From Hormiphora californensis (lineage: Eukaryota; Animalia; Ctenophora): a stretch of 64,000 nucleotides of DNA. The stretch spans positions 5,146,001 through 5,210,000 of the forward strand of contig CM035362.1 in assembly GCA_020137815.1 (NCBI GenBank), in the 5' to 3' direction. Within the stretch, counting starts at the first letter, position 1. Each line of letters starts with the position of its first letter. Of this stretch, positions 2,386-64,000 are shown piece after piece. The notes under the pieces were generated by a model, which worked only from the letters and a program-made list of their open reading frames with translations, was not told the origin of the DNA and did no database searches. The position numbers and the translations under genes were made by a program.

Positions 2386-2417
<32 letters not shown>

Positions 2418-31921: not shown

Positions 31922-32116
31922 CAATTGAGAGTTTTGAAAGTTGTGTGCTGTGTGTAGCAACTGGTATTTATACTGATTATATGTTTCTAAGATAAATTTG
32001 CTTGATTCTTGGCGGTCCACTGTTAAGCGATTATAATGATATTTTTATTCTTCAAATTCTTATGGTTCTTACTTTGGTGACCACTATCTTAACAATTCCC
32101 TTTCTCCCATCAAGGT

Positions 32117-34643
32117 ATGGCGAAAAGAAAACGTGAGAGTCCAACTAAAAATGTCACAAAATCAGCTGAACAGTTTGATATTCCTGCTCTCCTGAAAACG
32201 GAACAAATTGAGGTGGAAAGCAACATAAAACCTGAAATTCTCACACCCTTTACCGACTCCAAGAGTTCCAATATTACAATTTCTGCGGATAACATTTTAA
32301 CATTCACATGCGGTGGTTGTGGGGCATCAGGTATTCACCATTTGGGTTTAGAGTACCGACTAGTTAGAACAGCCACATTGGTGGAGGTTGGTACTCAAAC
32401 TGGTGATGAGTCAAGTTCCTCTGAGATTCCTGTCGAGACGTCCAATGGCATCTCTGCTATCTCGGCCCCGGTCCCGGTTATCCCAGAGAGCTCAGCAACC
32501 AACAACCCGGTAAGTGTGCAAATAATTAGGTTTTTACTTCGTGTTCTCTTTCCTTCACTTTTATAATCTTAGCTCTCCTAGACCGGCCCATCAAGTTGTC
32601 CTCTTTCTTTCTCTAAATCTCTAACCAATACACCCTCTCTATACCTTCTTATTATATTAGTAAATAAATATCTTCCTAGGCTGAAGGAAGATCGCCATCT
32701 GTACAGGCATTTGTTGATGACCTAAACAAAAAATTGGCGGCCTGCAAGGATGTACAGTCAGTAACTTCGTGTACCGATATCAGGATGGCGGTAAGTTTGT
32801 CATCAGGAACCGACCGAATCAGGTAATACTGGTCCCTGATTGGCTGATAACCAGTCACGTGACCTTAATAACGAGCTCTGATTGGTTGTTTACTTGTTTC
32901 GGTCGGTTTCTGTTTGTCATCATGAGTAGTAGGTAAAATAGCCCCGCTGTACCACCTAAAAGTGTGGCACACCATATTTGGGCATATGACGTCATCACAT
33001 ACCCAAATATGGTCATATGACGTCACATCACGTGACTTATCACGTGCTTTTATCATATCATGTGACATGATCACGTGTTTATCATGTGACATGGTCACAC
33101 GGTCACGTGACTTTAGTCATCGACTGACCAAATATGGTCATGTATGATGTCACCACATGATTTTCCTCGGTTGGCTGTCAGCTGTGCACCAGGTGTAGTA
33201 ATTGATCTGTGTATCAAGTTCGAGAGTGTGAGAGTGAGAGAGAGAGAGAGAGAAAAAGAGAGAGGGATAGATATTCAACATACTATGAAATAATCAAACA
33301 TGCTCAATTCAAATCACCTAATCCTTCTCTTCTCCTATCCTCTTAGCAACCGAAACATCCATGATGACCGAAAGAAAGACTCTGAATATCGAACAGCTTC
33401 ACCGGAAAGCCTTGTCAGCGGCGAGCAAAAATATAACCAAAAACTCGCAGAAATCATGGAAAGAAACTAAATCTTCCCAAAAAGAGGATCAAAACAGGTC
33501 ATATGATAAAATACCCGTTGGGGAAAATGATGGTGTATCTCTCTCTCTCTCGTTCAGCGACTGTGAATGTTCATTAATGATTAATGATCATTTTCAGATA
33601 ATTTTGGAGTGGAGACAAACACACAACTCTTCAAAAGAAACAAAAATTAATCGAAACTTTTCATATAACTTTACGAAAATGCAAAACCATCGATGTAGGA
33701 AAATCTCTCGAATCATCTTCTGAAAACTCAAAAAGCTTGTTCATATTATCACAAATTACAAACTGTATTTCACTCAAATTGACAAATCTCACTTTGAAAT
33801 AAGAAGGGTTTACAAATTCATAATGATTGTACCCCAATTTTTGCTCGAATGGGAACATAGCGAAAAATCTCGAGTCATGTTCATTTATTTGTCTATAGTC
33901 CGTGTATGCATGTGGTACAATGTTTGAATAGATATATCCAAGCTTTGCATGCCTCGGAAAGTCTTCTATTTTACCCGAAATTTTTGGTGGTAAAAGGTGG
34001 AATGGACTGTTTTCCATGTAAGTCTTAAAAAACCTCAAAACACTATTTTCACTCGTTGCAAATCCTTTAGTGGAATGACGATACTCCAGAGTACATACAT
34101 GTGTTGTTTCATCTGCAAAGTACTCTGGGATAGGCCAATGATCAGAACCATTCACCAGATTTTCCTTTTCTTCAGAGCTTATCGCCTTTTGCATTGCTAG
34201 TAGTAATTGTGCTCCGTTTCGATAATACCCAGGTGGAATTGAGTAATCTCTGGATTCATAATCCTGTTCCCTTTCGGATACCAAAAAGTGATTATTACCC
34301 TTGGTTACGTTAAATGTTGATGAAGGAGCGTGACTTATACTTTTTACAGCTACTTCATAGTCTCCATTCAAGTCTAATGCATTCTCCGATCGAAAGATAA
34401 ATTTACTGGGATTTTGTTTATAACTAGTAGCGATAAGGTACATGATTATAACTACTACTTGCATACGATTACATCCACGTTTCTTTTGAATTGAGTTTTA
34501 TGTGCTTAAATACTAATTACTCCACCATATTTGAACATATGAGGTCTACACATATCCAAATATGAACATATGACGTCACATGATCACGTGGTCATGTAAC
34601 TATGGTTCATATTTAGACATATGACGTCACCACATGGCATATT

Positions 34644-34732: not shown

Positions 34733-37700
34733 CAGAGACAGAGACAGAGACAGAGACAGAGACAGAGAAATAGAGAGACATCATACGAGATTCCGTGTGG
34801 GAGCGGTTCGTTTAGTGGACTGAGAGGGGGAGAGAGAGATAGAGAGATAGAGAGAGAGAGTTCCTTCTATTATATTATCATATTAATTATTGTATCCCTT
34901 TACATCTGTTCATTATCTTTTACTCACTCGACTTGATGTTGCTCTAGTTCTCTGTCTGCTGACCAAATGGATCCAATAACCCTTTTGATTTTGCTGGTTA
35001 TCTTCTTCATGCATCCTTACTTGACTAGACAGAAATCTGTGAAGTGTACAGTATGCGGAAAGACCATGAGGAAGGATACTCTTGGACGACACATGAAGAC
35101 TCATAATCCAACTGAAGAATGTCGTTTTTGTAAGAAACAAATTCGGGAGGATCGGTTGACTCACCATGAGACACTATGTCAAGATAAAGTCGACGAGAGT
35201 GTGTGTGATAGGGTTACAGGTGTTCATGAGCATATGGATGATTCAGTGGAAACACTCCCACAGTGCAGCTCAGTTTCTGGATTTTTCCGATCCTACGAGT
35301 TAAATGTGGAGAAAAGCATTGACTACGATAAAATAATTGAGGACACTTGTAGTGCTGTAAAGCACATCGTCACAGAGTCTGTCAAGAGACACCCGATAAA
35401 GGCACAGATCTCTATCTCTCTTTCCTTTTACAAAGATGTGGATGGTCAGAGAAATGGGTCAGAAAAAGTATTCCGATCACAGTGTGAACCCATAATAGCT
35501 GGTGACAATGTTGACGAGTTTCTCAAACGGGCAGCTGTGATCATTCGACATGGAATTGACGTATACGAACGATTTGGAAGTGGGTGGATTTTTGACAATC
35601 ACCAGTGTTCCAAACTTGAGCTGGCCAAATACTCACCACTATCGGGGTGTGGTTTTGTCACGCTCCCAAAGAAGCTGAGAGATATGCGATCGGTCTTAAA
35701 CATCCGTTCAACTGATAATCGTTGCTTCCTCTATTGTCTTTTGGCTCACCTATTCCCGGTAAAAAGTCATCCAGATAGGTATACAAAGTATCTGGACCAT
35801 GTACACAAAGTTGAAATGGGAGGTGTTAAGTTTCCTGTGAAACTAAGGGAAATTCGAAAGGTGGAACATCAAAACAATCTTTCTATCTCTGTATTTCAGT
35901 GGTCTAACGATGGTGGAGGTTCTGTTATACCCTTGAAACATGGTAGTGGAAAGGGTACCCAGATCGATCTCCTTGTTATCGAGGGTGGAAATTCATCACA
36001 CTACCTGTTGATAAAGAACTTCAACAACTTCATGAGACATCGAACTAAATACCACCACACCATGTTCTATTGTCGAAAATGCCTCCATGGGTTTGTCAAC
36101 AAGAGGAAACAACGAGATCATTCTACTCTATGCCTCCAGGGAATCAACCAGATTACCGTTATGCCTCAGCCGGGTGTTATCAGTTTTACAGAAAAACACA
36201 AGGGTGAAAAGAAGGCTTTCGTGATCTACGTAGACTTTGAGTGTGTTTTACAGAGAGTTGACTCTTCTGATTCCAACCGCTCGGTCACCAAGACGGAGAA
36301 ACACCTTCCATGTAGTTTCTCCATCGTCTCGTCTTCTGTTTTCGAGAACTACAACGAGGAGGAAATTGTCTTCTCGGATCCCGACCCAGCCAAAGTGACC
36401 CACCAGTTTGTCAGCGAGTTGCTGCGTATCTATACTACAATGATGGAATGTCAATCAACTAATGACTTTCCTATACACATGAGTGATCACGATGAGCAGG
36501 TGTTTAAGAATTCAATAAACTGTCACATTTGTGGTAAGGAACTTATGTGGGGATCGACAAAAAACTATCCTGTCAGGGATCATGACCACCGTCAGGAGCA
36601 TAACAACTTCCGGGGGGCTGCATGTAACATCTGCAACAGAAACTATTACAATCGTAGTCGGAAGGTTCCTGTTTTGGCTCACAATCTCAAAGGCTACGAT
36701 TTAAACCTTTTCCTGAGAGATCTAATACAATTTGTGTATAAGGAAGAGGAAGAGTTTGATGAAGTGGAGGGTCTCGACGAGGAGGATGAGCTCGGTGATG
36801 TGGACTTGGTTAATCCAAAGAAAAAGGACAGCATGTCCATCATCCCTGAAAACCTTGAAAAGATAAAGGCAATATTCACAAAAAAGTTCATTTTTCTTGA
36901 TTCTCTTGCCTTTCTATCCGCTCCTCTGACAACATTGGTTAAGAATCTCAAATCATCTGGACTGGAGAAGTTTCACCGCCTTCGTAAGAAATTCCCAGAC
37001 CATTTAGATATATTGACTGATAAGGGTGTCTATTGCTATGAGCATGTTCAAAAGTTTGAGGATTTGGAATTACCACATCTCCCTGCTAAGGATGCGTTCT
37101 ATAGTCATCTCACTGAGTCAAATATCACAGACGAGGATTACGTGCGAGCACAGACTGTTTTCAGAGAAATGAATTGCACCTCGCTCCTGGATTACATGAG
37201 AATCTATGTGTTGGTTGACACCCTCCAACTAGCTGACATATTTGAGAATTTTAGGGAGTTGTGTCTGACGTGGTATCAATTGGATCCAGTACACTACCTT
37301 AGTCTACCAGCATTCGGATGGTCAGCCATGCTCAAGATGACAGATGTCAACCTCGAAAAGATTACTGATATTACTCAATATACTTTCATTGAAGAAAGTT
37401 TACGAGGTGGGGTAACCACTGTGAATTGTCGTTACCACAAGGCCAACAATCCCTACCTGGATAACTATGACCCTCAAGTAGACACAACCTACATTCATTA
37501 CATCGACTGTAATAACCTGTGAGTGAGATATGATCTGAATTTACCTATACCTTATCCCAAACATTATCACATTTTTTATTACTTCATCGGTATAATTTAC
37601 CAACATCAACACTTGTATTTTCAGGTATGGTGATTCTATGAATCAGCCTCTACCAACTGGTGATTTCAAATGGTTGAAAAAAGAGGAGATTAAGGCGTTT

Positions 37701-46700: not shown

Positions 46701-49700
46701 TTTCGGAGAAATTATGTCCTGCACATAAAGCTGGCCTGAAATCTCCAATTTTACACCATTGTCAACAAGACTCACTGCTGGATAAAATCGGAAAGCACTT
46801 CCATACTGCTCAAGGGGAACTCTTGAGAAATCTTGAGAAGGAATACGAGGTGATATCTTCAAAGTTACCCAAGTCAGATAGCCCCGAGGATGATAAAAAG
46901 TGTTACATTAGTTGTGGAAGGAGTTTTCTGTTAACTGTTACACCAGAAGCCTTGTATTACGGGCGATATATGAGTGAAGACTCTGACAAGTTGATTTACA
47001 CCAAAACTTCAAAAAAGAGGAAGTTGAAATGATCAATTATTATAAATATCTTCATTTTTCTAATACCTTGCAATGAATCGTGTTTTTCCCTTCTTCTTTT
47101 TTGAATACAAAAGTTCATTATAAGGTCATTATAAAGATCATTATAAAATCTCTTTTTCTCTCACTTTCTTTCTCACGTCCTCTTAACTAGTACCACATAA
47201 GATAGAGAGAGAGAGAGAGGGAGAGAGAGAAGGAAAAAAAATCTCTCTCTCTTTTTCTCTCTGTCTCGCTCTCATTCCACGTTCAGCACTCTTTTACAAT
47301 CACACAACCATGAGTCACGTGACTCATCATAAATAGTTAGGATCGTTCCTGGAGTTGGTTGTTCATTATAAGTTCTGTGTTATAAAGATCATTATAAAGT
47401 CTCTCTCTCTCTCTCTCTATCCCTCTTTCTCACGTCCTCTCTCTCTCTCTTACTCGTTCTCATTCTACGTTAGACAGACATCATACGAGATTCCGTGTGG
47501 GAGCGGTTCGTTTAGTGGATTGAGAGGGGGAGAGAGAGATAGAGAGATAGAGTAAAAGTGTATTGTCATTAGGGAGAATCGTTCCTGGAGTTGACTGATT
47601 CCATGAGTCACGTGTTCAACACTTTAGGTATTATATAACCAACCATCTAGCTGACCTCAACTAAACTTCTCTTACCCATCCTAACCTCTGTGCCGAACAT
47701 TACTGCCGAACATGCCTGTTGTGTCTCTGATTGTTTACCTCATCGAAGAGCATCAGAGGACGAAAAGCTACCGGTAAGTCATGTCTTGAATGTTCTCATC
47801 AGCTTTTTTCATAGTGAGATTTACAGCTTTCGACTTGCTTTTTTTTTTCTTTTTTTTTTTTCCGCGCTCGGTTGAATACCGTAGGTATTCACCTGGATGT
47901 CTTTTGCAAAAAGGCATAGCTGTTAAGAATTCGAAAATTATACACAGTGTTGCTTGTAGTGGAAATACGATTTCTGTCAGAAACATGTTGTTCCCTATTT
48001 CGGTGTTGATGATCGTCAGACCCTAGTGTTGAATCGATACTGTATTCTCACTACAAGCACCCCTGATACTAGAGAGATGTCACAGCCACAAAACTAACTG
48101 TTTTTTTTTATCCCTTTCAGAAAGATTTTTACGGATCAAGGAATCTACATATGTTTTGACAAGTCTATCAAGATAGAGACTAACAAGAAGGTAGTTTGTG
48201 TGGTAAAGAAAGCGAAGCCCCCCCAGAGATCCAATATCATTTTGGTAAGAATCAACTCACCCTAGAACAGCTTTCTACTTCTTCTAATTGTTGAGTTCAC
48301 CATACACCTCATTTTGACTGTTTTTGAGTCCTACCCCTTATGAGTTTGGATATGGTCATCGTCACACCCCCTATCCGTGACTTGCCAGAACCCGAATTTG
48401 ACAACTATTTTTTTCCCCTCAGTGCGTTATTCTGTCCAAAGATGTTACTGGGGAAAGTAGTGACGACGACGATGAAGGTAGTGACGAAGGTGCGCTTTCA
48501 AACGAGACACTTGATCCAGATGCAGACTGCGATTCAACGAAGCGAGATGACAGTGCCGGCAAACGCCGAAAGATCTTGATTGAGTGAGACTGTGGGTGTT
48601 AATTGTTAACTGTGGGTGTGTTCAGGCATGTAGGGGAAGTTTTGAAAGTGGTGGGGCCAAATTTTTTTTTGGTCACGTGATATGACATACACTGACTTTT
48701 CTATTGAAAATTCGATTAGATCGGGCGAAGCGATAGCGGAGTCCGAGAAAATTTTTCGGTTTTTAGGGCAAAAAGTCATAGTTTTTGTCTAATCATGAAA
48801 AGAACTGGGGCCATTTCCTGAAAAGTGCTGGGGTCATGGCGTACCCTGCCTCCCCTTCCCCTACATGCGTGGGTGTGTTTCACAAACAACAAAAAAAAAA
48901 AATAAATAAAATAAAAAAAATAAAAATAAACTCTTGCATGAGTCTGTTTAGAGATATTTGTGGGATATGTGAGGTCACCTATTATAGGGGACCAGGCGAT
49001 TAGGACCAGGGGATGTGCAGCGTCACTCAATGATACAAATTATATAGCTGTAGTGTTTAGTACCCGTTTACTGATGATAACGATCGTGTTATTACCTGTA
49101 GGATGACAGTGACAACATTGGCTGTCACTAGTAGTGTTCTGTACAGTATTCTCTCTCCCAGTAATTTACACCGTGGTGAACCTTGTTGTTTAACTGTCTA
49201 TGTACATGTGCACTGGTATCCATCACTCATTTCATAGGGTGGGGAGGTGGTTGGAGGCCCGGTGGGGGTCCTGATGGTAGCTGGATGTCTGCCAGCGATA
49301 CAGCTGGGGGTGGAAAGTTGCCTGGGTGGAAGTTATGTGGTTGGTGCTGGAAATGAACATTTTCAGTCCGTCCGGAAAGATATGGATTTTGGTACGATCC
49401 AATGTTTGGTGTGGAACGGACACTATCTGGTGTGGAAACCCGTGAGGAGTCACGGGGAATGTGCTCTTTGCTGAACACATTGATCTCTGATTCCGATGTA
49501 GCTGTCCGTGGTGGTGTTTGATGGGGAGACTGACTTCGGGGTACAAACTGTGCTACATCGACATTTAACAGACTAGAAGTGATTCTTTCCTCTCCGTACC
49601 GACTAGAAGTGATTCTTTCCTCTTCGTACCCCTCATCACTCTTAGATCTCTTGTAGGATGGTGATGAGATGGATAAGGTTTGGGAAACGTTGGCTGGGGA

Positions 49701-50013
49701 GACACCATCATTGCTGGCCGTGGAGAGAGAGAGAGAGAGATACACCATCATTTTCCCCAACGGGTATTTTATCATATGACCTGTTTTGATCCTCTTTTTG
49801 GGAAGATTTAGTTTCTTTCCATGATTTCTGCGAGTTTTTGGTTATATTTTTGCTCGCCGCTGACAAGGCTTTCCGGTGAAGCTGTTCGATATTCAGAGTC
49901 TTTCTTTCGGCCATCATGGATGTTTCGGTTGCTAAGAGGATAGGAGAAGAGAAGGATTAGGTGATTTGAATTGAGCATGTTTGATTATTTCATAGTATGT
50001 TGAATATCTATCC

Positions 50014-50044
<31 letters not shown>

Positions 50045-53000
50045 ACTCTCACACTCTCGAACTTGATACACAGATCAATTACTACACCTGGTGCACAGCT
50101 GACAGCCAACCGAGGAAAATCATGTGGTGACATCATACATGACCATATTTGGTCAGTCGATGACTAAAGTCACGTGACCGTGTGACCATGTCACATGATA
50201 AACACGTGATCATGTCACATGATATGATAAAAGCACGTGATAAGTCACGTGATGTGACGTCATATGACCATATTTGGGTATGTGATGACGTCATATGCCC
50301 AAATATGGTGTGCCACACTTTTAGGTGGTACAGCGGGGCTATTTTACCTACTACTATCATGTTCATTTAGAAATATTCGTTTGCCTCAATATATCGTTTG
50401 TTTTTGTTGTTTTTGTACATGACAATCTATTTCACAGATTACTCCTGCTGATGGCAAGTTGAGGTGCACCCTCAGTTCCTGTAAACACAAAATTGGTATT
50501 AAGGTGCCACCGCCACCATACACGACCAATGGCAATATTACAAAACCATTCGCTAACATGAGAAAGGCGATCAGAAATCACTTTAGCAGTGACGACCACA
50601 TCAGGAACTGTCAGGCTGCGGTTGCCGTGCCTGCAATCATGTCCAGGTCGAAGCTGGAGATCCTTAAAAAACTGCTGCTGATTGTGTACACCAACATTAA
50701 ACACCGGGTTTCATTCGAGTAAGTTCTTATTACCGTCTCTCAAATTGAAAAAAAAATTCTAACACACATAAACATAGTTAGTTATTATTGTTATTATTAG
50801 CTCTTCCTGCTTAAAACTACCCTCCAATCCTATCAGGCTAGGTATTCCACATGTGATGATAATCGATGTACGGAAACTACGTTACCACAATGTGGATGAT
50901 GGGAATCGATGTAGGGGATCAAGACCTTTCTAAGGAATTTCCCAGAAAGGCACTTCCTATATTCCACGACCAAATCTCCACTGCCGCCAAGAAGAAGCTC
51001 ATCACCATTTGCGGAAGTTTTATTGTACCCTTGGCGGTGATAATCGATGGGGTTACCTCCCACCAGATGTGAGTTGATCAAGCACCATCTTTTGGGCCTA
51101 AAAACAAGAATAACGGTTCTCTGATGATTGAAATATTCTTTCTTATTTAGCAGGCAGCGTGTTGTGGTGGCAGTGCGATATCTTGATCTGGAAGGAGATG
51201 GACCCCTAGTCCGCATTTTGTATGCTGGCCATCCTGTCAACACCAGCCACACAGATGATGCAGCGGTAGTGGTACCATGCCTCCAGAGGATGATACCCGA
51301 TACAACATCCCTGTCCAGGTCTTTGAAATTCTTTATCACTGATGGCCACTTGATAAGTACACGGGTAAGTTTCAATCGTTTTAGACTCAAGATTACAAGC
51401 CTATATATGGAATACTGTATCGTAAGCTTCTAAGCTTTGCTCCTTCATCAAACAGTTTTGCGTTCAGTTTAAGGACGAGATGTGTAGGAAATTGGGTGTA
51501 TCGGTGAATGGCAGGTGCTTCGGTTGGGACTACGGCCATGCAAACCAATCCACCACCAAGGAGGCAATGAACTCGGCGGAGGGGTTGACATTTAAAAGGG
51601 TTGTGGAGGAGTCTTTGGAGATCACATCATTCCTGAGGTAAAGTGCAGTTGTACCCAAAATAGATATTCGTAACTGTAGATCTACTTCAAAACTGATAAT
51701 ACTTTATCAAGCAATTACTTTCTCAGGAAAAATGATGTACATGAGGAAGTCAAAAAAGAAATGAAATTTGTTCATACCGACAGAACCATTGTCCACGATT
51801 TTTATAAGAATTGGAGCACGAATGTCAAGCGTAAGTGTGGGTTAACATATATAATAATGGGTGCTAAGGTCGAAATACTTTGCCCTACTATACGTACAGT
51901 TTGTATTTAATTACAATTCATTTTCAGTGTTGCAGAACCGTGTTTCGGCAGGCACAGACGTGGCCAAGGCCAGGGCATACCTCGCTCTTATGGCATCGGA
52001 TGAGTGGAAGTCGAAGCTGCTGTTCATGAAGGTTATTGTTTGTAAATTTTATAACTCTATGAGACGTGATAATTAGCACTAGCTGAGTCGCTGTTCAGAC
52101 TTCAATTACAGTTCTCTGTATAATTTCTCCCGATCAGGATTTCTTGTCCATGCTCAAGAGATACTCGGTAGCATGGCAGGACAACACAGCGCTCATTGGC
52201 CGGGCGGAGGAAACGAGGAACCAGTTACTTTTTGTTCTGGATAACATCCAGCTGGCTACTCCGTCCGAGGGGACCATGGCGCTCTTCCCCACCTTCCTGG
52301 AGAACAGGTAAACAACCAATCAGAACTCGTTATTTAGGTCACGTGACTGGTTATCAGCCAATCAGGGACCATGGTGCTGTTCCCCATGGAACAGGACAGG
52401 TCCTTGTTAACACAGCAGCAATGTGAGTTACATTTGGTAGTAGTTATAGTTCATATATATATTATATGGGGAGAGCACTAGTACTGTACCTTTTTCTTGA
52501 TGCTGATGCTATATTTGATATATTTGATACATATTTATTTGGGATCGATGGGATAGCCAGTACGGAGTGCCGTAATTTATAATGTGAAGCACCCAATAAT
52601 TTATTATTTTCAGCTCTACCTGGTCTCCTCCACAAGTTCCGGCAAGACAGGCCCAAGAGAGGATGGATAATGTTGTGAACCAGGCCCAGCAGTTCATCAC
52701 TAGATTTAAGACTTGCGTGGAACACACCTGGTTCACACATAGTCTGTGGGGGAAGGATAATCATTTTAGTTCTAGGTACTTGATATATATATAATCATAT
52801 GGTGAGATTCCTATCATAATTCCTAGAATCGATCTTTTGTAAATTGCTATCTCTCTGTTTCTCTGTTTTCCCTCTCTCACATGATATCATTCAGATCCAT
52901 TGAAGAATTAGGGAAATTCCACATGGAGCTCGAGAACGACATTGGGACCCCGATTGTGGACGTTGCTGCCGGACCACTTTCCAGATGCAGCACCTGTAAC

Positions 53001-53863
53001 CGGGTAGTAGAAGGCCAGTTAAAGAGGGAGAAACATGCCAAATCTCATCAGCCTTCCTCCACCATGGCGCCGGTACCCAGTGTTGCGGCTACATGGACGA
53101 GGCCTACAACACCGCCCGATTTGAGTCAGCTGAAACTTCTGTCGACCTACCCACTCCAGGTTAGTTAAATGAAACTAAGGCTTTCCTGATCACGCACAAT
53201 TTAAATTTCAAACATTTCAAAATCTAACTTATCAGGTCAACCAACTGAACATGAATGTTCTAAGAACGACGCTGAAGAGGGTTGCATCAGCTAAGGGAAC
53301 AACCGACCTCGGCACTGCCATTAAGGCATTCCTTCAAGACCAAACAGCTGTTGCTACGGTCCATCCTGGCTGCCTGGAAGTCCTGCTGGTGTCCTGTTCC
53401 ATTGGGGGGTCTGAGTCAATAGCTGAGACAATAGGTGGTGACCTGGAATGGTACCATCAGAACCGATACTTCAACTTTGGAGATGGTGTTAAAGACGAGA
53501 TGTACGTATCTTAACTAATAACAGTATATTTTGTGCGGTCAGAGAAATTGGATTTACTTTTTTCAGGAAGTACATATCTTTCTTTGACAGAAAATATTCC
53601 ATACATTGAACATGTTCAATTGTTTCAGGTTACAGAAAGAGATATTCATCAGACGAAACGGGCCACCTATCGTCCATTCCCAAGATCTAATAGACAAGGT
53701 GGCCAGAAAGATGCTGAGCGATGGAACCACTAGAGTCGCCACTACAGCCTACCTGATCCCGAACACAAATGGTACACCACACTCGGTCTATCAAAACACT
53801 TTGAGAAAGGGGAAAGTAGTTGAAAAGAAACTGAAGGAGCCTGCCAGTGCATTTAAATTTTAA
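32117..53863 (+). CDS. Chimeric gene: ZF-family N-terminal exon fused to a multi-exon hAT-type transposase. Exons 32117-32509, 32680-32790, 50438-50718, ~50865-51068, 51151-51364, 51468-51637, 51727-51830, 51928-52031, 52138-52307, 52366-52422, 52614-52775, 52895-53159, 53236-53501, 53629-53863
   Basis: Phase-consistent GT-AG junctions except a missing acceptor at ~50865. hAT motifs: C-x4-C..H-x5-H finger, IIDG, VRY, ITDG, WDYGH (DxxH), D..S..WQ, SESIAET, IRRNGP. Confidence 0.75.
32804..32912. mobile_element. 109-bp hAT-type MITE (CAGGAACCGACC family)
   Basis: TIRs plus 8-bp TSD TTTGTCAT (32796-32803, 32913-32920). Confidence 0.9.
32925..33551 (+). repeat. Maverick left TIR
   Basis: Reverse complement of 49727-50355; dense TGACGTCA and CACGTG motifs. 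Confidence 0.95.
33661..34464 (-). CDS. Minor capsid (penton-like) protein 1
   Basis: L.LNGDYEVAVKSI, IPPGYY, YIYSNIV, F.NP.Y..V and VLHFRK motifs typical of Maverick pentons. Confidence 0.8.
   Translation of the reverse strand: MQVVVIIMYLIATSYKQNPSKFIFRSENALDLNGDYEVAVKSISHAPSSTFNVTKGNNHFLVSEREQDYESRDYSIPPGYYRNGAQLLLAMQKAISSEEKENLVNGSDHWPIPEYFADETTHVCTLEYRHSTKGFATSENSVLRFFKTYMENSPFHLLPPKISGKIEDFPRHAKLGYIYSNIVPHAYTDYRQINEHDSRFFAMFPFEQKLGYNHYEFVNPSYFKVRFVNLSEIQFVICDNMNKLFEFSEDDSRDFPTSMVLHFRKVI
34967..39120 (+). CDS. Protein-primed DNA polymerase B, 4 exons: 34967-37518, 37625-37927, 38035-38206, 38287-39120 (1286 aa spliced)
   Basis: Exo motifs DFEC and HNLKGYD; endonuclease-VII-like CHICG..RDHDH..GAACNICN insert. 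Splicing restores DCNNLYG and FFKLMNNCVYGK; SDTDS catalytic motif. Confidence 0.95.
39223..39305 (-). pseudogene. Relic 3' end of a third penton-like gene
   Basis: NDFPTVIVLHFREKY* resembles the penton-1 end RDFPTSMVLHFRKVI*; truncated upstream by a GA microsatellite. Confidence 0.55.
39441..39549 (+). ncRNA. tRNA-Leu-derived Pol III small RNA with a long terminal stem (VA-RNA-like)
   Basis: TATAAG at -30; TAGC A-box start at +8; B box GGTTCGAATCC 39506-39516; TTTT terminator 39546-39549; 15-bp terminal stem with G-U pairs plus internal stems. Confidence 0.75.
39594..40280 (+). pseudogene. Putative type I membrane glycoprotein (182 aa once the MITE is removed)
   Basis: Deleting 39767-39902 plus one AA fuses ORFs 39594 and 39912 in frame. 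Hydrophobic N-terminus, four N-x-S/T sequons, TM segment IILYCLPVIVIFTLIIGG. Confidence 0.7.
39767..39902. mobile_element. 136-bp palindromic MITE (CCC...GGG ends, 2-bp AA TSD)
   Basis: CCCTACTAAAATATAGTTCGACGCG...CGCGTCGAACTATATTTTAGTAGGG with a CGATCGAT core. Confidence 0.85.
40313..40510 (+). CDS. Small Cys/His protein (Maverick accessory)
   Basis: ATG-initiated ORF with CxxC..C..H; preceded by a TATA box. Confidence 0.5.
   Translation: MNTYSLLDYFAGGSNSDSRLFCSKCTILKRCWRHNVVELPHHKYQPLKWERIPLRKLKNIRRTTI
40547..40981 (+). CDS. Hypothetical Maverick accessory protein
   Basis: 144-aa ORF preceded by a TATA box; C-terminal CDCEMC. Confidence 0.6.
   Translation: MVAIDNTEFYDDVWGKIGSLIRSYGNVLSYEATYSLTHDSFRFPVTLPDQIAPIIAGIDRGYNGNPVRIEIGYFWENEGDNRRGLGTHPHLLTVADIVQKDIVRMIKPSRTISVISLAFIRVLVFKLDEVDEDYDICDCEMCSI
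41039..41344 (+). CDS. Small accessory protein with a putative N-myristoylation/palmitoylation motif
   Basis: Starts MGLCWS (MGxCxS); C-terminal CDCGRDC. Confidence 0.55.
   Translation: MGLCWSTKPSFDEDAWESLSPTKIPFADEFIEKQEVITRVREANQKMLAWEIPEEKCQHVKFQHDFHHFYPPVYDQYSPISVKSFDPADIECDCGRDCGHS
41369..41815 (-). CDS. Adenain-like maturation cysteine protease
   Basis: GEHWIAV, FMDSYG and Q...SNACGYY catalytic motifs. Confidence 0.92.
   Translation of the reverse strand: MKSLTTKTFDDIKTNHFKGAFAYDEVSDLPDGDWSIIVNTSPSSKPGEHWIAVVYKGGITYFMDSYGRKLNRNETTFTHEFVDTMKGIVQGRVIYNNKILQQLTSNACGYYALYFVERLSIESLKQTLQPFSGNLKQNDMFVYKYCLS
41841..43136 (-). CDS. Major capsid protein (double jelly-roll)
   Basis: 431 aa next to the protease; PTQTGI, ISFTVP, NPF and FDLT.D motifs typical of Maverick MCP. 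Confidence 0.88.
   Translation of the reverse strand: MTKYVKSSEGLPTQLHLWSPMSTQTGIIATKQIDVYPNNSIDSSDTISFTVPGLERHMLDSIDVYTEMRVLSGDGTVPADRVNVSTAPHLGAILWRNVEVSSGGVSLTQSYDNSYAMFKFWDDCIHHGRGERPYLLRKEGLLLDDVGDKTESEDTTYYPEDTKIEPKNKNGRIRAQRIARGETMFLCSKLNVTLFNQATLLPSDLEFQVQLTKNYDETILMSATTDTSKVKLDRVFLRCTYQQPRDDVINLLEQKLAKRNAIYHADKKVMSIHSIATSVVTIDNLFNGTLPYFFYVGIQDRSAFGRNRNKNPFSLHMVKSVQLYVNGVEYYPQMLKMTDHDETNMVVALGEATGARKDNFIMHHFRVYPALGFDLTQDKTQNQHGMNLNKSGNVRIVLELLKQSTTDKVLFTLAYYDRIIEVDKNRQLYAI
43181..43492 (-). CDS. Small virion core / membrane-active protein
   Basis: Protease-type site QRGG/G followed by amphipathic helix IGGFLKKLFRSV; basic C-terminus. Confidence 0.7.
   Translation of the reverse strand: MRQLYYPSPRATADFDRALDADLGVYHNQRGGGIGGFLKKLFRSVAPIGKTFLQKGFEIAKPGLQTAGNELVNAAGQYAARQIETGTNKLTKKIGKRKRDALS
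43554..44258 (-). CDS. Minor capsid (penton-like) protein 2
   Basis: ISLSDNFEIAVKGI, IVPGFY, FLYSSVV and NPMYRP motifs; paralog of 33661-34464. Confidence 0.8.
   Translation of the reverse strand: MDIIVTSENQRRSSFSSNFLDSISLSDNFEIAVKGIFHGPTYNITESNNTFRLFEVDATEELNIVPGFYANTCEIVKAMHDVCLRNEIDSSFKVPDPGKVVLKLPKPTKLITGGEHDTLMRIFGFCNYDDESKLVYLNQLNIDNYVLENQSEVAFLYSSVVANMSINQQQSHLLACFPIKSKEGYNYHEVINPMYRPLSVHAFTDLHFRFTDIEGKLFKFAILPTVIILNIQKR
44218..44430 (-). CDS. Small basic protein
   Basis: K/R-rich 70-aa ORF overlapping its neighbours in the morphogenesis block. Confidence 0.5.
   Translation of the reverse strand: MRYRLIAEDGSVKKSLDIPTEILPIKRTLGVVLKSKLGKSKKRRSTKHLKSTKALINNGYNRNKRKSKTK
44427..44738 (-). 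CDS. Small virion protein with a QKGG cleavage-type site and hydrophobic tail
   Basis: NQKGG/SIIRSILQTILPILPALL; conserved position downstream of the ATPase. Confidence 0.7.
   Translation of the reverse strand: MPKHIPVILKRHHSVMKLLSRKNNAQIQIVLENTPSLRKALKLLFKSILDGRLSMGEREIKKLKRHRSFIRKHARAPIKANQKGGSIIRSILQTILPILPALL
44717..45346 (-). CDS. A32/FtsK-like packaging ATPase (likely ATG at 45319)
   Basis: Walker A GASGSGKT; Walker B LLILDD; GSHH motif. Confidence 0.93.
   Translation of the reverse strand: MIVLFYKLIMRLLANSNILVIGASGSGKTTTIMKIVREELISPMPKKIYYLYAAHQPFMDTWNSENKQKIEFVHGLKLDVIDQFDGPKLLILDDLMLELNKEMAQHFIAGSHHKQTTTIFVTHSVFLNNENYRLISQNTQYMILFKNKRNLSQINTLARQILGKDNWRLMEAYKYIGAYQFVLLSFHPRVPEELLVTTDYFTSCPNIFL
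45356..46591 (-). CDS. Retroviral-like (rve) integrase with a C-terminal chromodomain
   Basis: FQADLVD, TDGGGEF and IERCNRT (DDE); chromo motif YFVSFKDYPESENRWV. Confidence 0.95.
   Translation of the reverse strand: MSYLLTNQIHGIINKYHFLNFQTRFVAPVIKGRKHNPRCIIHTFIDMMRKRKSRRKQKPKDKIQKLYINPVSHGAFAGKESFYRSTKEKIKGLKRSVVQKALLKSDPYTLHKPVRKPRRYRRIYSRGINYHFQADLVDMSAYSKQNNGFKWILMVIDTFSKRLWAFKLKNKSAKSVYDELESLLTRLKPQKFETDGGGEFKNKVLIDLFNRLNIDTYTVYSDRKCAIIERCNRTIKSKLYRAFTSQGSHRWVDILENLIRNYNNSYHRAIKMKPNQVNKSNENEVRENLYPNEPPRPRPKLQVGDTVRVSRMKDIFQKGYEQTWSYEVFTVDEVRDTNPVTYRLQDSSGEILQGSFYEAEVQKVDVDNQIYAIDKVLKTRKHRGHEQYFVSFKDYPESENRWVDKSDMFDI
46634..47032 (+). CDS. Hypothetical protein with a Cys/His cluster and C-terminal NLS
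   Basis: 132-aa ORF after CTATAAAA; C..C..H..HHC; KKRKLK. Confidence 0.6.
   Translation: MLYFENVWIAALTDSMVRRVCNISEKLCPAHKAGLKSPILHHCQQDSLLDKIGKHFHTAQGELLRNLEKEYEVISSKLPKSDSPEDDKKCYISCGRSFLLTVTPEALYYGRYMSEDSDKLIYTKTSKKRKLK
47712..48587 (+). CDS. Spliced 3-exon gene (47712-47773, 48121-48244, 48423-48587), 116 aa, SSB/OB-fold-like with acidic tail and NLS
   Basis: GTAAGT/GTAAGA donors, polypyrimidine-CAG acceptors and an open frame across both junctions; TATA at ~47632. Confidence 0.65.
48623..48871. mobile_element. hAT-type MITE inside the Maverick
   Basis: TIR CAGGCATGTAGGGGAAG/CTTCCCCTACATGCGTG; 8-bp TSD GGTGTGTT (48615-48622, 48872-48879). Confidence 0.85.
49227..49917 (-). CDS. TIR-initiated Ser/Pro-rich protein, frameshifted at a (TC)9 tract
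   Basis: ORFs 49708-49917 and 49227-49775 join in frame if the tract is (TC)7, as in the left TIR. Confidence 0.45.
49727..50355 (-). repeat. Maverick right TIR
   Basis: Inverted copy of 32925-33551; I see one substitution plus microsatellite differences. Confidence 0.95.
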
Positions 53864-54016
53864 TTTTTTATGTGTGCGTCTGTGTGTGAGAGAGTGCGTG
53901 TCTGTGTGTGAGAGAGTGCGTGTCTGTGTGTGAGAGAGTGTTCGTCTTCGTGCGAGAGAGTGCGTGTACATGCCTGCGTATTTACCAGGTAGCTCGGTTT
54001 TTATTAAATTTTATCT

Positions 54017-54699
54017 GTTTATGAAACCCGATAGTTGATTTATCAGTCGTTTGAACATTTTACGCGCACACGTTAACTGCGAGATGGGGGATTTAACACC
54101 CTGCTCGCTCTTTATCAGACCAGTGCCCATTTTCACGCGTTTCTCTTCATTTCCATAACATGCGTGTAATTTCCAAGTAATGAAAATGTGTGTAAACACA
54201 CAGTTCTGTCAATAACAGAGGGGGAACACATCTGCAAACACTTTTCAATGTATCTCTCTCATCAAGAGCAACAATAGTCGCATTCCATTCGTTTCTCTCT
54301 CTCATTCTCTCTTTTACTGTTCAATATCTCTCACTGTGTGTTTTGCCCCTAATCTTTTCTCTCTCTTTCTCAAACATGTTAGGAACAGTAGACACTAAGT
54401 CTACACACATTTGAGAGTGTCTGTTGACTATTTGCCAGTAGTCCTTGTGTGTTACCCCTTGTGTTGTGTCTCTTATTTGTGTAATTACTATCGGGTTTCA
54501 TAAACTATGAACGTTTGTTAGCCTATCGCGTTATAGGTTTAAATCACCCCCCCTCACCCTCGGCTGGCGCCTCGGGATCGGCGTCGGGATTTAAACCAGT
54601 TTAATCGCCCTGCCGGGCGATTAAACTCCAGTTGCTGTCCCCAGCTCGCGCTGGGAACAGCCAACTTGATAACGCGCCAGTCTACAAACGTTCATAGTT
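54017..54699. mobile_element. Small non-autonomous element with an internal complementary region and multi-hairpin end (tyrosine-recombinase-type?)
   Basis: 54487-54518 is the exact reverse complement of the end+start junction, sharing GTT. Confidence 0.6.
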
Positions 54700-54983
54700 C
54701 ATGTAATTTATTTTATAACCCTGGGACAATAAAAGAATCAGTGATGATGATAAAAATCCTTCAAAATATATGACCTCCATAGATTGTTTGTTTATCTTAG
54801 TTCTGACTACCTTATTACTCCAATGAAGCGAATCTCAAATCAACTATCGAGCATCAATGGAAACCCCCTATCCTGGCCTCTCTTTCTTCCAAATTCCCCC
54901 TTCCAGATTTGACTAAACATTACTCTTTTAACTTGTTTACCGATTCGTAAAATCTAAACTTTCTCTATTCTATGCAGGATATA

Positions 54984-56072
54984 ATGGCAAAAAGTAAACC
55001 TGACCGACCAAGAGCTGGTAGTTCAGAAAGTCCCGCCACGACAGCCGATGGAAAATTTGAAATTCCTCCCCTTCTGAAAACTGAACCAATATACGTGGAA
55101 ACTCCCTGTCCAGTATTCAAGATTCAAACAATACCAGAGGTAGATGAGAACGATATTTTATTCAAATGTGATGGATGTGGAAAACAAGGGAGTTGCCTTC
55201 TGGAATCAGGGTATAGACTTGTTAAAACCGCCATTTTGGTAGAAGTTGGAACTCAAACTGGGTGCGATGAAATTACAGTGGATCCTGTAAAGATGGAAAT
55301 TACTGATCCTCTTTACCACGACTCAATTCCTAGCACATCAGCTGCTTTACCACTAATTGGTGAGTTTTGGAATGTCTTTTTTTCATTGTGTTTTTTAGGT
55401 AGATATCCTCAATGTTAAATTCTAAATTATCTTATTTTTTCAGATGATTTGAATACAAGTTTGTGCTCAGATGAAGGAGAATCTGGTGGTGAGGAAGAGG
55501 TAAGCAGCTCTGAAGATGACATGATGTTGGGACTAAAAGAGGAGACACTCGGAGATTATAGTGAAATAGAAGAAGGAGTTCTGCAGAGTTCTTCCCGGAT
55601 TCCCACCTCTGATCCAAATATCCCTATTTCCCAGTCACAAATTCTACCTCGACAAACTGACCATGACCAACCGACTACTTCCTATCCTGATTTTTGTCAG
55701 ACATCTGCCAGGAATAACGCTGATCCAATAAATAAGCCTCTACTTTCTTTCCTGTATGGGTCTCCATATAATCAATCAGGTCCGGAAGAGTCGTATTCTC
55801 CTCAAACTGTGAGCAATCGAACCTCGCTGGCAATAGATTCTCCTGAAGAAAGTGGGCCGAACGCTCGTTACCACTGTCAAATTATGCGGTGCTCAGTTGT
55901 TACATCATCGGAGAAGGACCTGTTCGAGCATGTTAGAATTGCTCACTCAGATAGGAAATACCGTTGCGATTCTTGTCCAAAGGCGTTTATGTATCTAAGT
56001 GAGCTTACTAAGCACAGCATGATGGTCCATAGTGGAGATAAACCTTTCCAATGTGACGAGTGTGGATGAATT
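54984..56072 (+). CDS. Divergent C2H2 ZF copy 6 (exons ~54984-55359, 55444 to the gap), truncated by an N gap
   Basis: Same N-terminal domain (FKCDGCG, YRLVKT, VEVGTQT), acidic linker and first fingers. Confidence 0.75.
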
Positions 56073-56419: not shown

Positions 56420-56505
56420 ACACATTATGAACACATTATGAACACATTATGAACACATTATGAACACATTATGAACACATTATGAACACACATTATTATG
56501 AACAT
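56420..56505 (+). repeat. 11-bp tandem repeat (ACACATTATGA)
   Basis: Direct inspection. Confidence 0.85.
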
Positions 56506-56509
56506 TTTC

Positions 56510-58067
56510 AATATACTGGACATGAGTGCTGCATTCGACACCGTTGACCACACCAAGCTGGTCCAAGTGTTGAATAGTCGGTTTGGAATCTGTGGAGCAG
56601 CGCTCAATTGGTTCGAGAGCTACCTTGGAAGCAGAAGCTACAGAGTTAACGTTCGAGGAAAACTCTCTGGAATTGTCAAGCTAGTATGTGGTGTCCCACA
56701 GGGTTCTCTGTTGGGACCTGTCTTGTTCCTGCTGTATGTGGAGGAACTCCAAGACCTTGTTGAACAGTATGGGCTGAGGATAAAACTATATGCTGATGAC
56801 TCACAGTTATATATGAGTCTGGTTCCTCATGATGATGAAGGATGGCTAGCAGTGAAAGGTAATGCTGAGGATTGTTTGAAGGAGGTGAAGGATTGGATGG
56901 TGAAGCACTGGCTGAGGTGTAATGAGGCCAAAACGGAGCTATTGTTACTTGGAAAGAGTGGAGCTCTAGAGAAGCTAGCCTATGAACCCTCAATTGTTTT
57001 TGGAGGCACGGAAATCTTTCCAGTGGATTTTAAAGGAACTACAGGTAAAACCCTTGGCGTCTACCTTGACAGCCAACTCACTATGGAACGACAGGTTAAC
57101 AGTGTCAAGAGACAGTGTGGTATGATCCTGAGGAACCTTTGGCAGATCAATCGATGTTTGGACCAGTCTATGAAGATCCTCCTTGTCAAACAGTTAGTTA
57201 TTTCGAGGTTGGACTACTGTAACATACTGTATTGTGGACTCCCGAAGAAACACATCAACAGCCTACAGAAAACACTCAACTCTTGTGTTCGGTTCGTCTA
57301 TGGTCTACACGGACATCAAGATGATTATGCTCCCTACCTGAAGGAAATGCATGTCCTTCCTATTGAACAGAGGATTGTGTTCAAGGCATGTCTTACAGCT
57401 TATAAGGTCGTTCATCGAACTGCTCCAGATTATCTAACCGACAAAGTGCCAGCGTGTGAGGGTGTGGATAGCTTGCGTTTTACCAGAGCCAATGCTGTTC
57501 CGGATGAGTTCAGGCTCCAGTACCCGAAACTCTCAAGTGTCAACGCTAATTCTAAATTGAGGAGAAGGCGACCTTCTGTATTTCTACCCAGTCTGTGGAA
57601 CGAACTTCCTTTGGACATCAGATCTCTTCTGTCTGTTGATTCCTTCAAGACAAGACTTAAGACCCGACTCTTCATTGAGGCTTATGGCGTAAGTACTTCC
57701 TGAAGGCTTGTATCAGTTTTTTATCTCCAGTGTGTTTGGAACAGTTGTATCGGTTTTTATTTTAAGCATTTTTTGAGGGTTTGAAGCATGAGTGGACAGA
57801 GTGTGAAGCAGTGTGAATTTTGTTTACCAAGGATTCTTTTTGGACAGTTTATCATTATATGTCAGTTATTTTCTTCAGTTTTTTCCCACGATATGTGAGC
57901 CGTTGTAAGTCAGTTATATTCCATTATGGTCTTGATAGAGTAAATTTTTCCCTAGCTTTGTATCCCGCTCTGATTGTCTTTCAGTGGCAGTAGTTATCTC
58001 TTGATCTGTTGCCCCTGGAGGATATGGGCGGAATATAAGCACGTCTATTATTATTATTATTATTATA
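56510..58067 (+). mobile_element. 5'-truncated CR1/L2-type LINE; RT C-terminal ORF to 57703
   Basis: LDMSAAFDTVDH, GVPQGSLLGP, YADD and SRLDYCN motifs; 3' UTR ending in (ATT)n. Confidence 0.92.
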
Positions 58068-58298: not shown

Positions 58299-58407
58299 CA
58301 GGAACCGACCGAATCAGGAAATACTGGTCCCCGATTGACTGATAACCAGTCACGTGACCTAAATAACGAGTTCTGATTGGTTTTTTACTTGTTTCGGTCG
58401 GTTCCTG
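58299..58407. mobile_element. 109-bp hAT-type MITE copy
   Basis: CAGGAACCGACC...GGTCGGTTCCTG; partial duplicate end at 58271-58298. Confidence 0.85.
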
Positions 58408-58554: not shown

Positions 58555-58663
58555 CAGGAACCGACCGAAACAAGTAAACAACCAATCATAACTCGTTATT
58601 TAGGTCACGTGACTGGTTATCAGCCAATCAGGGACCAGTAGTTCCTGGTTTGGTCGGTTCCTG
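58555..58663. mobile_element. 109-bp hAT-type MITE copy (opposite orientation)
   Basis: Same TIRs; TSD not evident. Confidence 0.85.
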
Positions 58664-60539: not shown

Positions 60540-60648
60540 CAGGAACCGACCGAATCAGGAAATACTGGTCCCTGATTGGCTGATGACCAGTCACGTGACC
60601 TAAATACTGAGTTCTTATTGGTTGTTTACTTGTTTCGGTCGGTTCCTG
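60540..60648. mobile_element. 109-bp hAT-type MITE copy
   Basis: TIRs with 8-bp TSD TGTTGAAG (60532-60539, 60649-60656). Confidence 0.92.
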
Positions 60649-63334
60649 TGTTGAAGGTACAGAAAATGGGAAGGGTGGAGAGATAGGCCCAGATAAGAAA
60701 TAAACTTGTATTATATATTCACCCCTTTGTTATCTTGATTGCATTTTCTCTTCTTAAGAAGAATATATCGCACGATTCGTTAAATCACCTCACAGCACTT
60801 TAAAGTGCAAGCTTACGAGCAATAAGGTCACGCCGCAAGCCTAACATGCACGGAAGGGAAGTCGAACTGCCAGTTCACAAGGTGAAGAAAAAGAGCGGGA
60901 AATAGCATATAATGCTTGTGATGTCCTAACCCTCCGGAGCGCACGGAAGAGGGTCGTAATCAATGCATGAATAATAACCAGCCACACAGTTGACACTTAA
61001 CCAAGAAGGCAATGTATCGATAATTTATCTACTCAGGTTTTGAGTTCGACTAGAGCCAGGGGATGTAAAATGTAGCTCTAATGATACACAAGTTGCTAAA
61101 TCAGCTAGCAATATATTACCTGTTCCAGTGATGAGAATAGTCTCATTACAAATCTCCTTGCTTCTCCTGCTCACGAACAAATACATGAACTCCCAGAAGA
61201 ACTCGTAAAATCCAACCTGGTAACAAATAGAGAATTAAAGCCACTACAGGCATATATAAGTAATCGCAGAATGTGAATCAGTTTCGTGACAGAGACTGTG
61301 AAGAAAGGTGACACATCTCACTATATCGGAGAAAGAGACCAGAACAAGTTTTTACCTTGTAAAGGAACGTAGACATCCTTCAGAAAGGTGAAACACGCTG
61401 CTATGAAACTTTTAATACACATCCTGCAAGGAAGGTTACTATTTCGTTATACAATCTGAGAATGACACAACGTTGTAAAATGCATTGAAAGTTGACTTGT
61501 TCGCAATGTCAGCACTATGGTTGGAAACTTGCCGTTACCGCTGTACCTGGAACCTAAAACTCCTCAATCAACGTAACATTTAATATGTTAAAAAGGGAAA
61601 TAGAGTAACTATTAAACTCAACACTGACTAACTGGGCTCGATCGACTATCGGTAATCGGTTAGCAAAAATATGCAAAGATGTAAAAAAACAAAAATTACT
61701 AGGCCTCTGGCCTGAAAGGGAACTTAGCACCTCAGTTCAAGAACCGTCAGGAGAAACATAACTGACAAAGCTTAGATTCAGTCCCCAGACCTGAGTACGG
61801 GTTGGCGATTTTTGGCCAACATGGAACAATCTGTTTTCATGCGATTACATTTTAAAAGCAGTTCACGCTTCCCCTCAAGTCTCAAAGTTACTCAGGGTTG
61901 GCGCGGAGGCCTGGGCATCCGGCCCAGGTTCTAGCAATTAGGCATTTGGTGTCCGGGGCCAGGGTTGATTATCCCGGTCAGGCCTCAGGGGGTGTGAGCA
62001 GTTGGGGTGAAACCCAGGGACCATCCACAGGGGGTTAGGGGGAGGAAGCAAGGAACGTTAACTGGAAGAACACAGGCGGATAAGTTGGCAAAGTGCAAAC
62101 GTTGCTGGCCCCCAGCGTGGGATAAGGCAGCGCTTTTCAAGCGGATAAGTTTTAATACTTTTTGTTTGGCAAACGTTGCTGGCCCCCGATAGGATAAGGC
62201 AGCGCTTTGGCAAACGTTGCTGGCCCCCGCCCCCCGGGATAAGGCAGCGCTTTTCAAACTTTTTGGGGTTTGGTTTTGTTCGGAAAACGTTAAAATCTGG
62301 GTGCCTTTCATTGCTAACAATTCGTAGTTTTAGCGCGCGCGACGGGTTAGGGCTATCCGTTAGGGTCTGGTTAGGGTTTGGTTTGGGGTTATCGGTTAGG
62401 GCTATCGATTCTCTATCAGTTACCGTTTAGTTTACTCAAATTGGCCATGTGGTTGCGTGGCTATAGCCGTTTGAAAAAAGTCGGTCTAAGTGTACTCTTT
62501 TGGTAGCGCGCACCTGTAAACACGCTGCAAGGCACCCAGATTAAAGTCCATTTTTATTCAACTGTTCACCCCTCAACTCGTGTTGGTAACGAAGTTACCC
62601 CTCCCTTGCCGGCGCGGCGTGCGAAGCACGCCAAACGAAGGCCGCGAAGCGGCCTGAGTAGGGGTAACAAACCCGCTTTGATTCACTTCAAAAATTAATA
62701 GCTCCTCAACCACTCAATGAAAATGCACCAAATTTTGGTATTCCCCACCAAATTGTCTGAAAATTATAATTCTGTACTCATATTTAAAAAATTATCCCCG
62801 GAACCTTGGTTTTGAAATCAGTTTTAGGTGTTAATGATGAAAAAAATTTTTGAAAAAGTAGGTCAGGTATGCTTAACATCATATCAAAGATCGTGGCAAA
62901 GTTTGAAGTTTCTATCTTGAAAGGTCTGGCCATCAAAATTAAAAAGGTCTTGAAGTTGAACCATTTGTACAAAACATGTTGTAACTCAGCTTCTACTTTG
63001 CCAAATTAAACCTGGTTTGAAACACTGAACTGCTAATCTATCCCTCCGAATACGGACGAAGTTTGAAACCGCCAGCTCTATTGGCCGCTCTGCAATACTT
63101 GTTTGTGTCAAAGAAATCAGGAAAGTAACGAGATTTGGTCTCGGTGTGGCCCTGTGCGCGGCTCAAACCCCTTAGCTAGAACTATGTAGTGTAGACTACA
63201 ACTTTTCAGTGCTCAGTATAACGTTTTGGGCGCGTTGTGAAAATAGGGGAAGCCCTTCTGATACCTCTAAACAGAGTGTGAGGTGTCTTCGATACCAACA
63301 ACTCGTGCGCGTACGATATTTTAATTTACGCTGC

Positions 63335-63990
63335 GCGCGCTACACGTTAACATGTGATAAACGCGCAAAACAATTCCGCGCACGACTTTGGGGGGTGAAC
63401 AGTTGAAAAAAAATGGAGTATATGCACTCAGCACTGTGTCAGTCAAGACAAATGTGAAAAATCAAAATTGTTTTACAAATTTTGAAAATTTTGAAATTTA
63501 AAAAAATCGCATGTTCTCCTGATCTTCGTAAAATGCGCTTTTGGGTTATGTAACGCGCCTTTATGTCTTAGTATGCGCTGCAGGCCCGCTTGCGCGCGTT
63601 TTACTTGGCTTTTTGGATTTTTTTCAGCGGAACGCGAACAAAACGGGCGCGATTATATATTTTTTTACTCCATTTTTTTTCAACTGTTCACCCCCCAAAG
63701 TCGTGCGCGGAATTGTTTTGCGCGTCTATTACATGTTAACGTGTAGCGCGCGCCACAAAAATTCTAAATTTCACTGAAATTTCGATTTTGGGTGAACAGT
63801 TGAAAAAAAATGGACTTTACTCTGTAGGTCCATTAAGCAAGGGACCTGTAAAGTCTTTTTTTTGAACTATTCACCCAAAAGCTGAAATTGAGAATTTTTG
63901 TGGCACGCGCTACACGTTAACATGTGATAAACACGCAAAACAATTCCGTGCACGACTTTGGGGGGTGAACAGTTGAAAAAAATGGCGTAT
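63335..63990. repeat. Inverted/direct repeat cluster (foldback-like)
   Basis: ~85-bp unit CGCGCTACACGTTAAC...TGAACAGTTGAAAAAAAATGG at ~63335-63420, inverted at ~63665-63752 and direct at ~63905-63985. Confidence 0.75.
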
Positions 63991-64000
63991 AGAGCTTGTC

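Follow-up and report, generated by a model that had tools for sequence, protein, structure and literature searches.

Intron gain through the capture of DNA during double-strand-break repair is a known proposal that has found support in Daphnia and Drosophila (PMC3020277, PMC3296678, PMC4202315), and the donors of most break-repair introns are given as unknown (PMC4202315). The locus described in this work resembles those cases: foreign DNA appears to have entered an exon via microhomology and to have brought a GT..AG segment with it, and the mosaic sequence found around new introns is a feature of Daphnia too (PMC3020277, PMC3296678, PMC4202315). Differences concern the donor, which in Daphnia and Drosophila is mostly unknown, mitochondrial or rDNA but is here the interior of a nuclear MITE (58 of 58 positions), and the template switches, both of which are readable here, unlike in the published cases. 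On the other hand, the Daphnia and Drosophila introns were annotated or checked with cDNA, whereas ours is predicted from DNA alone (PMC3020277, PMC3296678, PMC4202315).

Three further systems come close. Scars of SD-MMEJ and polymerase theta (PMC7407515) and class 2 templated sequence insertions (TSI; PMC5110952) share with our site the small deletion, the microhomology and the lack of a TSD, as well as flank copies in direct or inverted orientation and a patch of distant origin; the site differs in that both kinds of patch occur in one scar, where they frame a candidate intron. Introners (10.1101/2022.06.06.494994, PMC12130899, PMC11282704) are likewise intron-sized, transposon-derived and equipped with their own splice dinucleotides, and some of them also add codons, as the candidate would. 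In introners, however, the mobile unit is about the intron itself and families exist (10.1101/2022.06.06.494994), whereas here we have one case and a mobile unit of 109 bp whose ordinary insertion could not be removed by splicing with the frame kept. The gain of introns by tandem duplication (PMC4974935) is similar in that a local duplication takes part, but in our case the duplicate stays exonic and the body of the intron is foreign. Single transposon-derived introns are already known (PMC11282704). In the literature covered, mostly open-access main texts, we found no report of this MITE, nor of a repair-made intron that stems from a MITE interior and has readable template switches.

The window, by which we mean the whole stretch of DNA analysed (64,000 nucleotides of Hormiphora californensis), contains a transposase-like gene in which the candidate intron is located. 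The parts of this gene needed below are as follows.

50438..53863, forward strand: transposase-like host gene with 12 predicted exons and 11 GT..AG introns, including the candidate
52138..52307, forward strand: predicted exon before the insertion
52308..52365, forward strand: MITE core (columns 20-77) and candidate GT..AG intron
52366..52405, forward strand: 40-nt patchwork of direct and inverted flank pieces, absent from the empty copy; prospective new coding sequence (net +9 codons)
52406..52422, forward strand: ancestral end of the interrupted exon (VNTAA), with a donor at 52423; the empty copy in run X1 rejoins at 52406, and the stretch aligns with distant relatives

With the 58-mer removed, the frame is open from early exon 2 to the stop (646 positions, one stop); skipping the 57-nt exon 52366-52422 preserves the frame as well. 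The N-terminal half of the predicted protein aligns with P0021, P0024 and P0026 at 26-28% identity and the C-terminal half with P0018, P0019, P0020 and P0025 at 26-30%, while P0022, P0023 and P0027 showed no match to the host gene and were left out. The sole named true relative is a hypothetical protein of Mnemiopsis leidyi. Two D, a WDxxH and an E are conserved with the relatives, which we take to indicate a hAT-like transposase; motif likeness only thus suggests that the host gene is a hAT transposase. Searches of the protein yielded no hAT Pfam match, no PDB match and no usable match in the ESM Atlas, the search with the exon gave no match, and the fold model of a relative has low confidence (pLDDT 38). 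Neither the gene start nor the ends of the element were found for the 50438..53863 model: 10-mer inverted matches between 49500-50440 and 53860-55000, as expected for element TIRs, consist of GA runs only. The gene belongs to a family with multiple variants, as seen in runs X1, X2, X5 and X7. Another copy of this family departs from the window after 52267 into unrelated sequence in X2 and X5.

The donor MITE is 109 bp long and has terminal inverted repeats that agree at 17 of 18 bases. Four full copies are present in the window.

32804..32912, reverse strand: full 109-bp MITE with an 8-bp TSD
60540..60648, reverse strand: full 109-bp MITE with an 8-bp TSD
58299..58407, reverse strand: full 109-bp MITE with a 13-bp flanking repeat, adjoining a MITE-end remnant
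58555..58663, forward strand: full 109-bp MITE without a flanking repeat

An 8-bp TSD is the rule for hAT elements and is seen at two of the four copies, one other copy having 13 bp and one none. Apart from the end remnant adjoining 58299, a 13-mer scan of the window revealed no further piece of the MITE. The family is present at high copy number, with 2128 to 10151 aligning contigs per DNA run, mostly on the MITE core. Between 58268 and 58420 the remnant, a 13-bp spacer, the full MITE and the same 13 bp follow each other, making up a 31-bp duplication that includes a TIR and differs from the 8-bp TSD of other copies. The core at 52308-52365 contains CCAATCAG twice and the palindrome GTCACGTGAC, presumably akin to CCAAT-box and E-box motifs, so that promoter-like sites may be spread by the family. 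CACGTG and GTCACGTGAC also form a cluster immediately upstream of the transposase-like gene, in a 629-bp segment (49727-50355) that has an inverted duplicate of 99.4% identity at 33551-32925; a full MITE lies 12 bases beyond the end of this second copy.

A sequence-only reading of the DNA had proposed that 52308..52365 is a 58-nt intron made from the interior of the MITE, with the MITE's own splice sites, with terminal repeats absent or eroded and with removal keeping the frame. The coordinates and the match are exact: the segment, which starts with GT (52308-52309) and ends with AG (52364-52365), is identical at 58 of 58 positions to columns 20-77 of the majority sequence of the four full copies. 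Individual copies agree at 54 to 57 of the 58 positions, and the BLAST E-value against the copy at 58555 is 4e-29. Outside the core the match continues for 4 nt leftward and 6 nt rightward and then drops to chance level. Only 2 of 14 positions are matched for columns 1-14 and 3 of 26 for columns 84-109, from which it follows that the MITE ends are missing rather than worn down; the terminal repeats are indeed absent but not eroded. The site itself lacks both TSD and TIR, and among the five core-bearing places in the window it is the only one without MITE ends. As to the splice sites, GT and AG do occur in three of the four window copies, but the base preceding GT (52307) is a G, whereas all four copies have an A there; this G is therefore a host base and the donor context is not entirely the MITE's own. 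The frame claim also stands, as excision gives ..FLENRDHGAVPHGTGQVLVNTAAIST.. and retention leads to a stop straight after ENR.

To establish the form of the exon without the segment, public contigs were aligned to 51900-52900. Eleven runs were found, none recorded as RNA and nine of which contain part of the host gene, and six were used (X1, X2, X5, X7, X10 and X11). Results of the first alignment concern the best 12 of 17 between-letter rows, the best 20 of 192 loose ends and the best 24 of 20884 pieces; those of the second the best 18 of 51 loose ends. Further variants may thus exist among the remainder. X10 provided no aligning contig, and X11, by our guess an RNA run, provided one that is a MITE copy from elsewhere with the core in place and was not counted as evidence. 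One contig of X1 matches the window up to 52307, continues with 13 other bases and resumes at 52406; read by hand it gives ENSVAGLVNTAA, in frame. This empty form is represented by a single contig with a short side of 23 nt. It implies that in the window 13 bases have been replaced by 98 (58 of the core and 40 more), rather than that 58 bases were added to an exon. Against the spliced form of the window, each of the four distant relatives covering the site has a gap of 8 residues, and each comes within one residue of the empty length; a fifth (P0013) gave no useful alignment at the site. A contig of organism B ends its match at the same position, 52307, and rejoins at 52665. In the second alignment no loose end at 52307 was found among the matches listed.

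The earlier claim of a gained segment, to be checked against paralogues, is thus borne out by the empty copy in X1 and by the four of four distant relatives without it. The residues DHGAVP downstream of the segment are not ancestral; they come from the 40-nt insert that most likely arrived with the core. The opposite direction, in which an old intron of the gene family was captured as the interior of the MITE, has in its favour that the core shares GTCACGTGAC with position 50169, ahead of the gene. We regard it as barely credible, given that related copies and distant relatives are without the segment and that the core equals the majority of MITE copies exactly. Moreover, organism B has the MITE (10151 aligned contigs, pieces of the gene family included) and yet one of its contigs departs at 52307.

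X1 and X5, which are samples of separate studies, both have contigs for the left and the right joint of the window form, with 0 to 2 differences over 108 to 166 bases, which excludes an assembly error. The best-matching run is possibly the source of the window itself, in which case X1 and X5 amount to one independent sample. Contig depth in X5 (about 3100) might be taken to mean that the core-bearing form is multi-copy; this was rejected, as depth is not copy number and can be inflated by MITE words.

The nature of the two joints and of the patch provides the clue to the origin of the segment. The features concerned are the following.

52303..52307, forward strand: left joint, AACA (4 nt, shared by host and MITE) and then host G against MITE A, giving CAG/GT; the empty copy in X1 matches to 52307
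52365..52371, forward strand: right joint, GGGACCA (7 nt), where MITE columns 77-83 equal host 52270-52276
52270..52307, forward strand: host stretch and main template of the patch; a contig of X2 has the 3' end of the core before sequence aligned at 52270

Microhomology thus amounts to 4 nt at the left joint and 7 nt at the switch from MITE to host, and none was seen at the join to 52406. Within the host gene GGGACCA occurs at 52270 and 52365 only, the patch begins at this junction, and the 7-mer is found in 72 of 20000 shuffled 50-nt flanks. The patch itself is identical to 52271-52291 at 19 of 21 positions (0 of 5000 shuffles) and nearly self-inverted (1 of 5000 shuffles). When words of at least 5 nt are taken from either strand of the two 50-base flanks, they account for 36 of its 40 bases, a coverage reached by 7 of 957 other gene stretches and 45 of 10000 shuffles; overlapping short words can arise by chance, however, and with 7-mers 17 of 40 bases only are covered. 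An eroded MITE arm was considered as source of the 40-nt tail and discarded, since 2577 of 5000 shuffles score equally well.

The small deletion, the microhomology, the lack of a TSD, the flank copies and the patch from a distant locus are marks of SD-MMEJ and class 2 TSI, and on these grounds we read the site as a repair scar. We consider it probable that the 58-nt core was acquired by templated break repair and not by transposition, and we lean, with less assurance, towards a single error-prone repair in which 13 exon bases were exchanged for the MITE core and the 40-base patch, the core becoming a new intron in the event that its GT and AG serve as splice sites. In the proposed course of events the broken left end (..GAACAG) would prime via AACA on a MITE located elsewhere, with synthesis running through the core as far as GGGACCA. 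Through this 7-mer the template would switch to host position 52270, short direct and inverted pieces of the flank would be copied, and the right end would finally be joined at 52406. The host G together with the MITE GT would form the donor CAG/GT, the acceptor would come from the MITE, and the predicted splicing would keep the frame and add 27 bases (9 codons) to it. The pathway is likely of the polymerase theta type (SD-MMEJ/TMEJ), the enzyme assignment being putative. Templates in SD-MMEJ are reached over approximately 30 bp (PMC7407515), and those of the patch are at most 38 nt away from the left end, near that reach. Insertions by polymerase theta usually measure 1-25 nt (PMC7407515); the stretch copied from the MITE is 65 nt and thus longer, which counts against the proposed course of events.

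Alternatively, the structure may have been built up stepwise: either transposition brought a full MITE into the exon and deletions and a patch later took away both ends, or the patch was there before the core, which was then copied in between matching flanks. In favour of this, the MITE behaves as an ordinary mobile element in the window (two of the four copies have the 8-bp TSD), and in one core-bearing contig two flank positions deviate from the window, indicating that the site has some age. We nevertheless judge such a history unlikely. No remnant of a TIR or TSD is present, the core is unaltered (58/58), and the patch templates would be 60-100 nt away from a right-hand break. Also, none of the four joints in the listed matches of X1, X5, X7 and X11 runs from 52307 to 52366, though this is weak evidence because contigs drop rare variants.

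Whether the core would be spliced is a separate matter. A splice matrix was built from the 10 other predicted introns of the host gene, with leave-one-out ranges for comparison. The donor scores 5.1 (range 2.9-9.3) and the acceptor 7.2 (range 4.2-11.8), values that agree with a U2 spliceosomal intron. Eight AGs lie between 52330 and 52430, and the best-scoring one (52365) is the only one that restores the frame. When random pieces of the MITE are drawn, 138 of 4200 have GT and AG near their ends, or about 1% after a one-in-three factor for frame, a figure that disregards that the site was picked for its intron look. In other respects the candidate is atypical: it is the shortest of the 11 predicted introns (58 nt against 76-191), its pyrimidine share is the lowest (0.55, others 0.60-0.70), and a rival AG at 52357, 8 nt upstream of the acceptor, scores 4.4 and causes a frameshift. 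A TGAC is found at -20. Taking these figures together, we give splicing at 52365 in a transcript an even chance.

The main competitor on this point accepts the same repair scar, and hence the same origin as our preferred explanation, and differs on splicing alone: the insertion would be a disruptive one in a dead transposon copy and never a working intron, with GT, AG and frame fitting by chance. The short length, the weak pyrimidine tract and the rival AG agree with this, and 775 of 4200 random MITE pieces contain some GT..AG pair of at least 50 nt. The same holds for a net +28 frameshift in the window copy upstream of the core.

50838..50875, forward strand: local-duplication scar, net +28 nt, with a frameshift at the start of exon 2; evidence from contigs of X2, X5 and X7

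Among the matches listed, contigs of X2 and X5 depart from the window after 50837 and a contig of X7 bridges 50829 to 50876; these forms imply that 50838-50875 in the window is a net insertion of 28 nt. The segment is a degenerate copy of 50877-50917 (0 of 5000 shuffles). Read narrowly as a patchwork it is less convincing, as 78 of 965 controls reach its coverage at 5-mers, and a degenerate duplication fits better. The frameshift precedes both the MITE core (by 1.4 kb) and the predicted catalytic residues, so that the rescue of the frame at the core need not reflect selection; if the host copy was dead before the core arrived, the frame fit would be due to chance. Cryptic introns that might rescue the exon-2 frameshift were looked for as well (7 GT..AG pairs and one other acceptor), but each costs residues and they are unsupported. 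Against a segment that never functioned as an intron stand the GT and AG at the very ends of a stretch made of MITE only, and the fact that, of the eight acceptors, the one with the best score alone keeps the frame. In addition, that the frameshift is older than the insertion and is present in the samples are assumptions of that reading. We hold it possible but doubtful. Two scars at 1.4 kb from each other may mean that break repair with templated insertions is frequent in the host copy or in the genome.

The sequence-only reading went further and called the gain introner-like, with the MITE family creating new introns. The absence of TSD and TIR, the loss of 13 nt, the 40-nt patch and the frameshift for five of five splice pairs speak against it. 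As an introner, the MITE or its core would make introns as it moves, by DNA transposition or by reverse splicing of the core. Consistent with this, three of the four window copies of the MITE themselves carry the GT and the AG, and introner families without TSD or TIR do exist (10.1101/2022.06.06.494994). Yet the mobile unit (109 bp) and the candidate spliced unit (columns 20-77) are not the same, and after insertion of the full unit with its TSD (109+8), excision at any of the five internal GT..AG pairs (splice sites within the MITE, at least 40 nt apart) leaves a remainder of 52-73 bases that is in no case divisible by three. The match passes both splice sites into the exon, which a lariat cannot supply, and the target lost 13 nt while gaining a 40-nt patch. 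Introners are recognized when a minimum of 4-5 introns from different genes resemble each other and the resemblance stops at the splice sites (10.1101/2022.06.06.494994, PMC12130899); among the five core-bearing places in the window there is one candidate of this type, the only one without MITE ends. We therefore consider an introner very unlikely.

Overall, we read the segment as real, gained and derived from the MITE; it is likely a repair scar and possibly a new intron, but not an introner. A broader version, in which the MITE, present many thousand times, serves as a passive intron cassette and break repair repeatedly copies the GT..AG core into exons via microhomology, never by jumping, appears improbable to us. 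If it were true, a family of identical 58-nt introns would exist, each with its own repair scar, which in screens would look like an introner family, yet one without transposition. Since the donor, the empty site and both switches can be read, the locus would be an unusually legible case of intron gain by break repair, provided that splicing is shown. It would then demonstrate that transposition is not needed for a transposon to give rise to an intron. The weight of the case is bounded by its being one event, possibly in a dead transposon copy, with an intron that is a candidate from DNA alone.

The remainder of the window is rich in repeats and other genes. A 32-bp satellite forms two large arrays of opposite orientation at approximately 9600-14600, and the GC skew flips to match. 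Several C2H2 zinc-finger paralogues with a DNA similarity of 70-80% occupy 25877-32403 and 54979-56070, and a 100-base gap of N follows the last of them. A reverse-transcriptase ORF of 405 aa at 56486-57703 (RVT_1, E 8e-19) is likely a LINE fragment. Two long intronless ORFs, of 278 aa (33661-34497, reverse strand) and 861 aa (34937-37522, forward strand), are possibly part of a large mobile element; the larger one has a weak match to endonuclease VII, below the cut-off. Finally, a palindromic repeat of about 320 bp at 63333-63991, with related pieces at 62537-62576, likely represents another MITE family.
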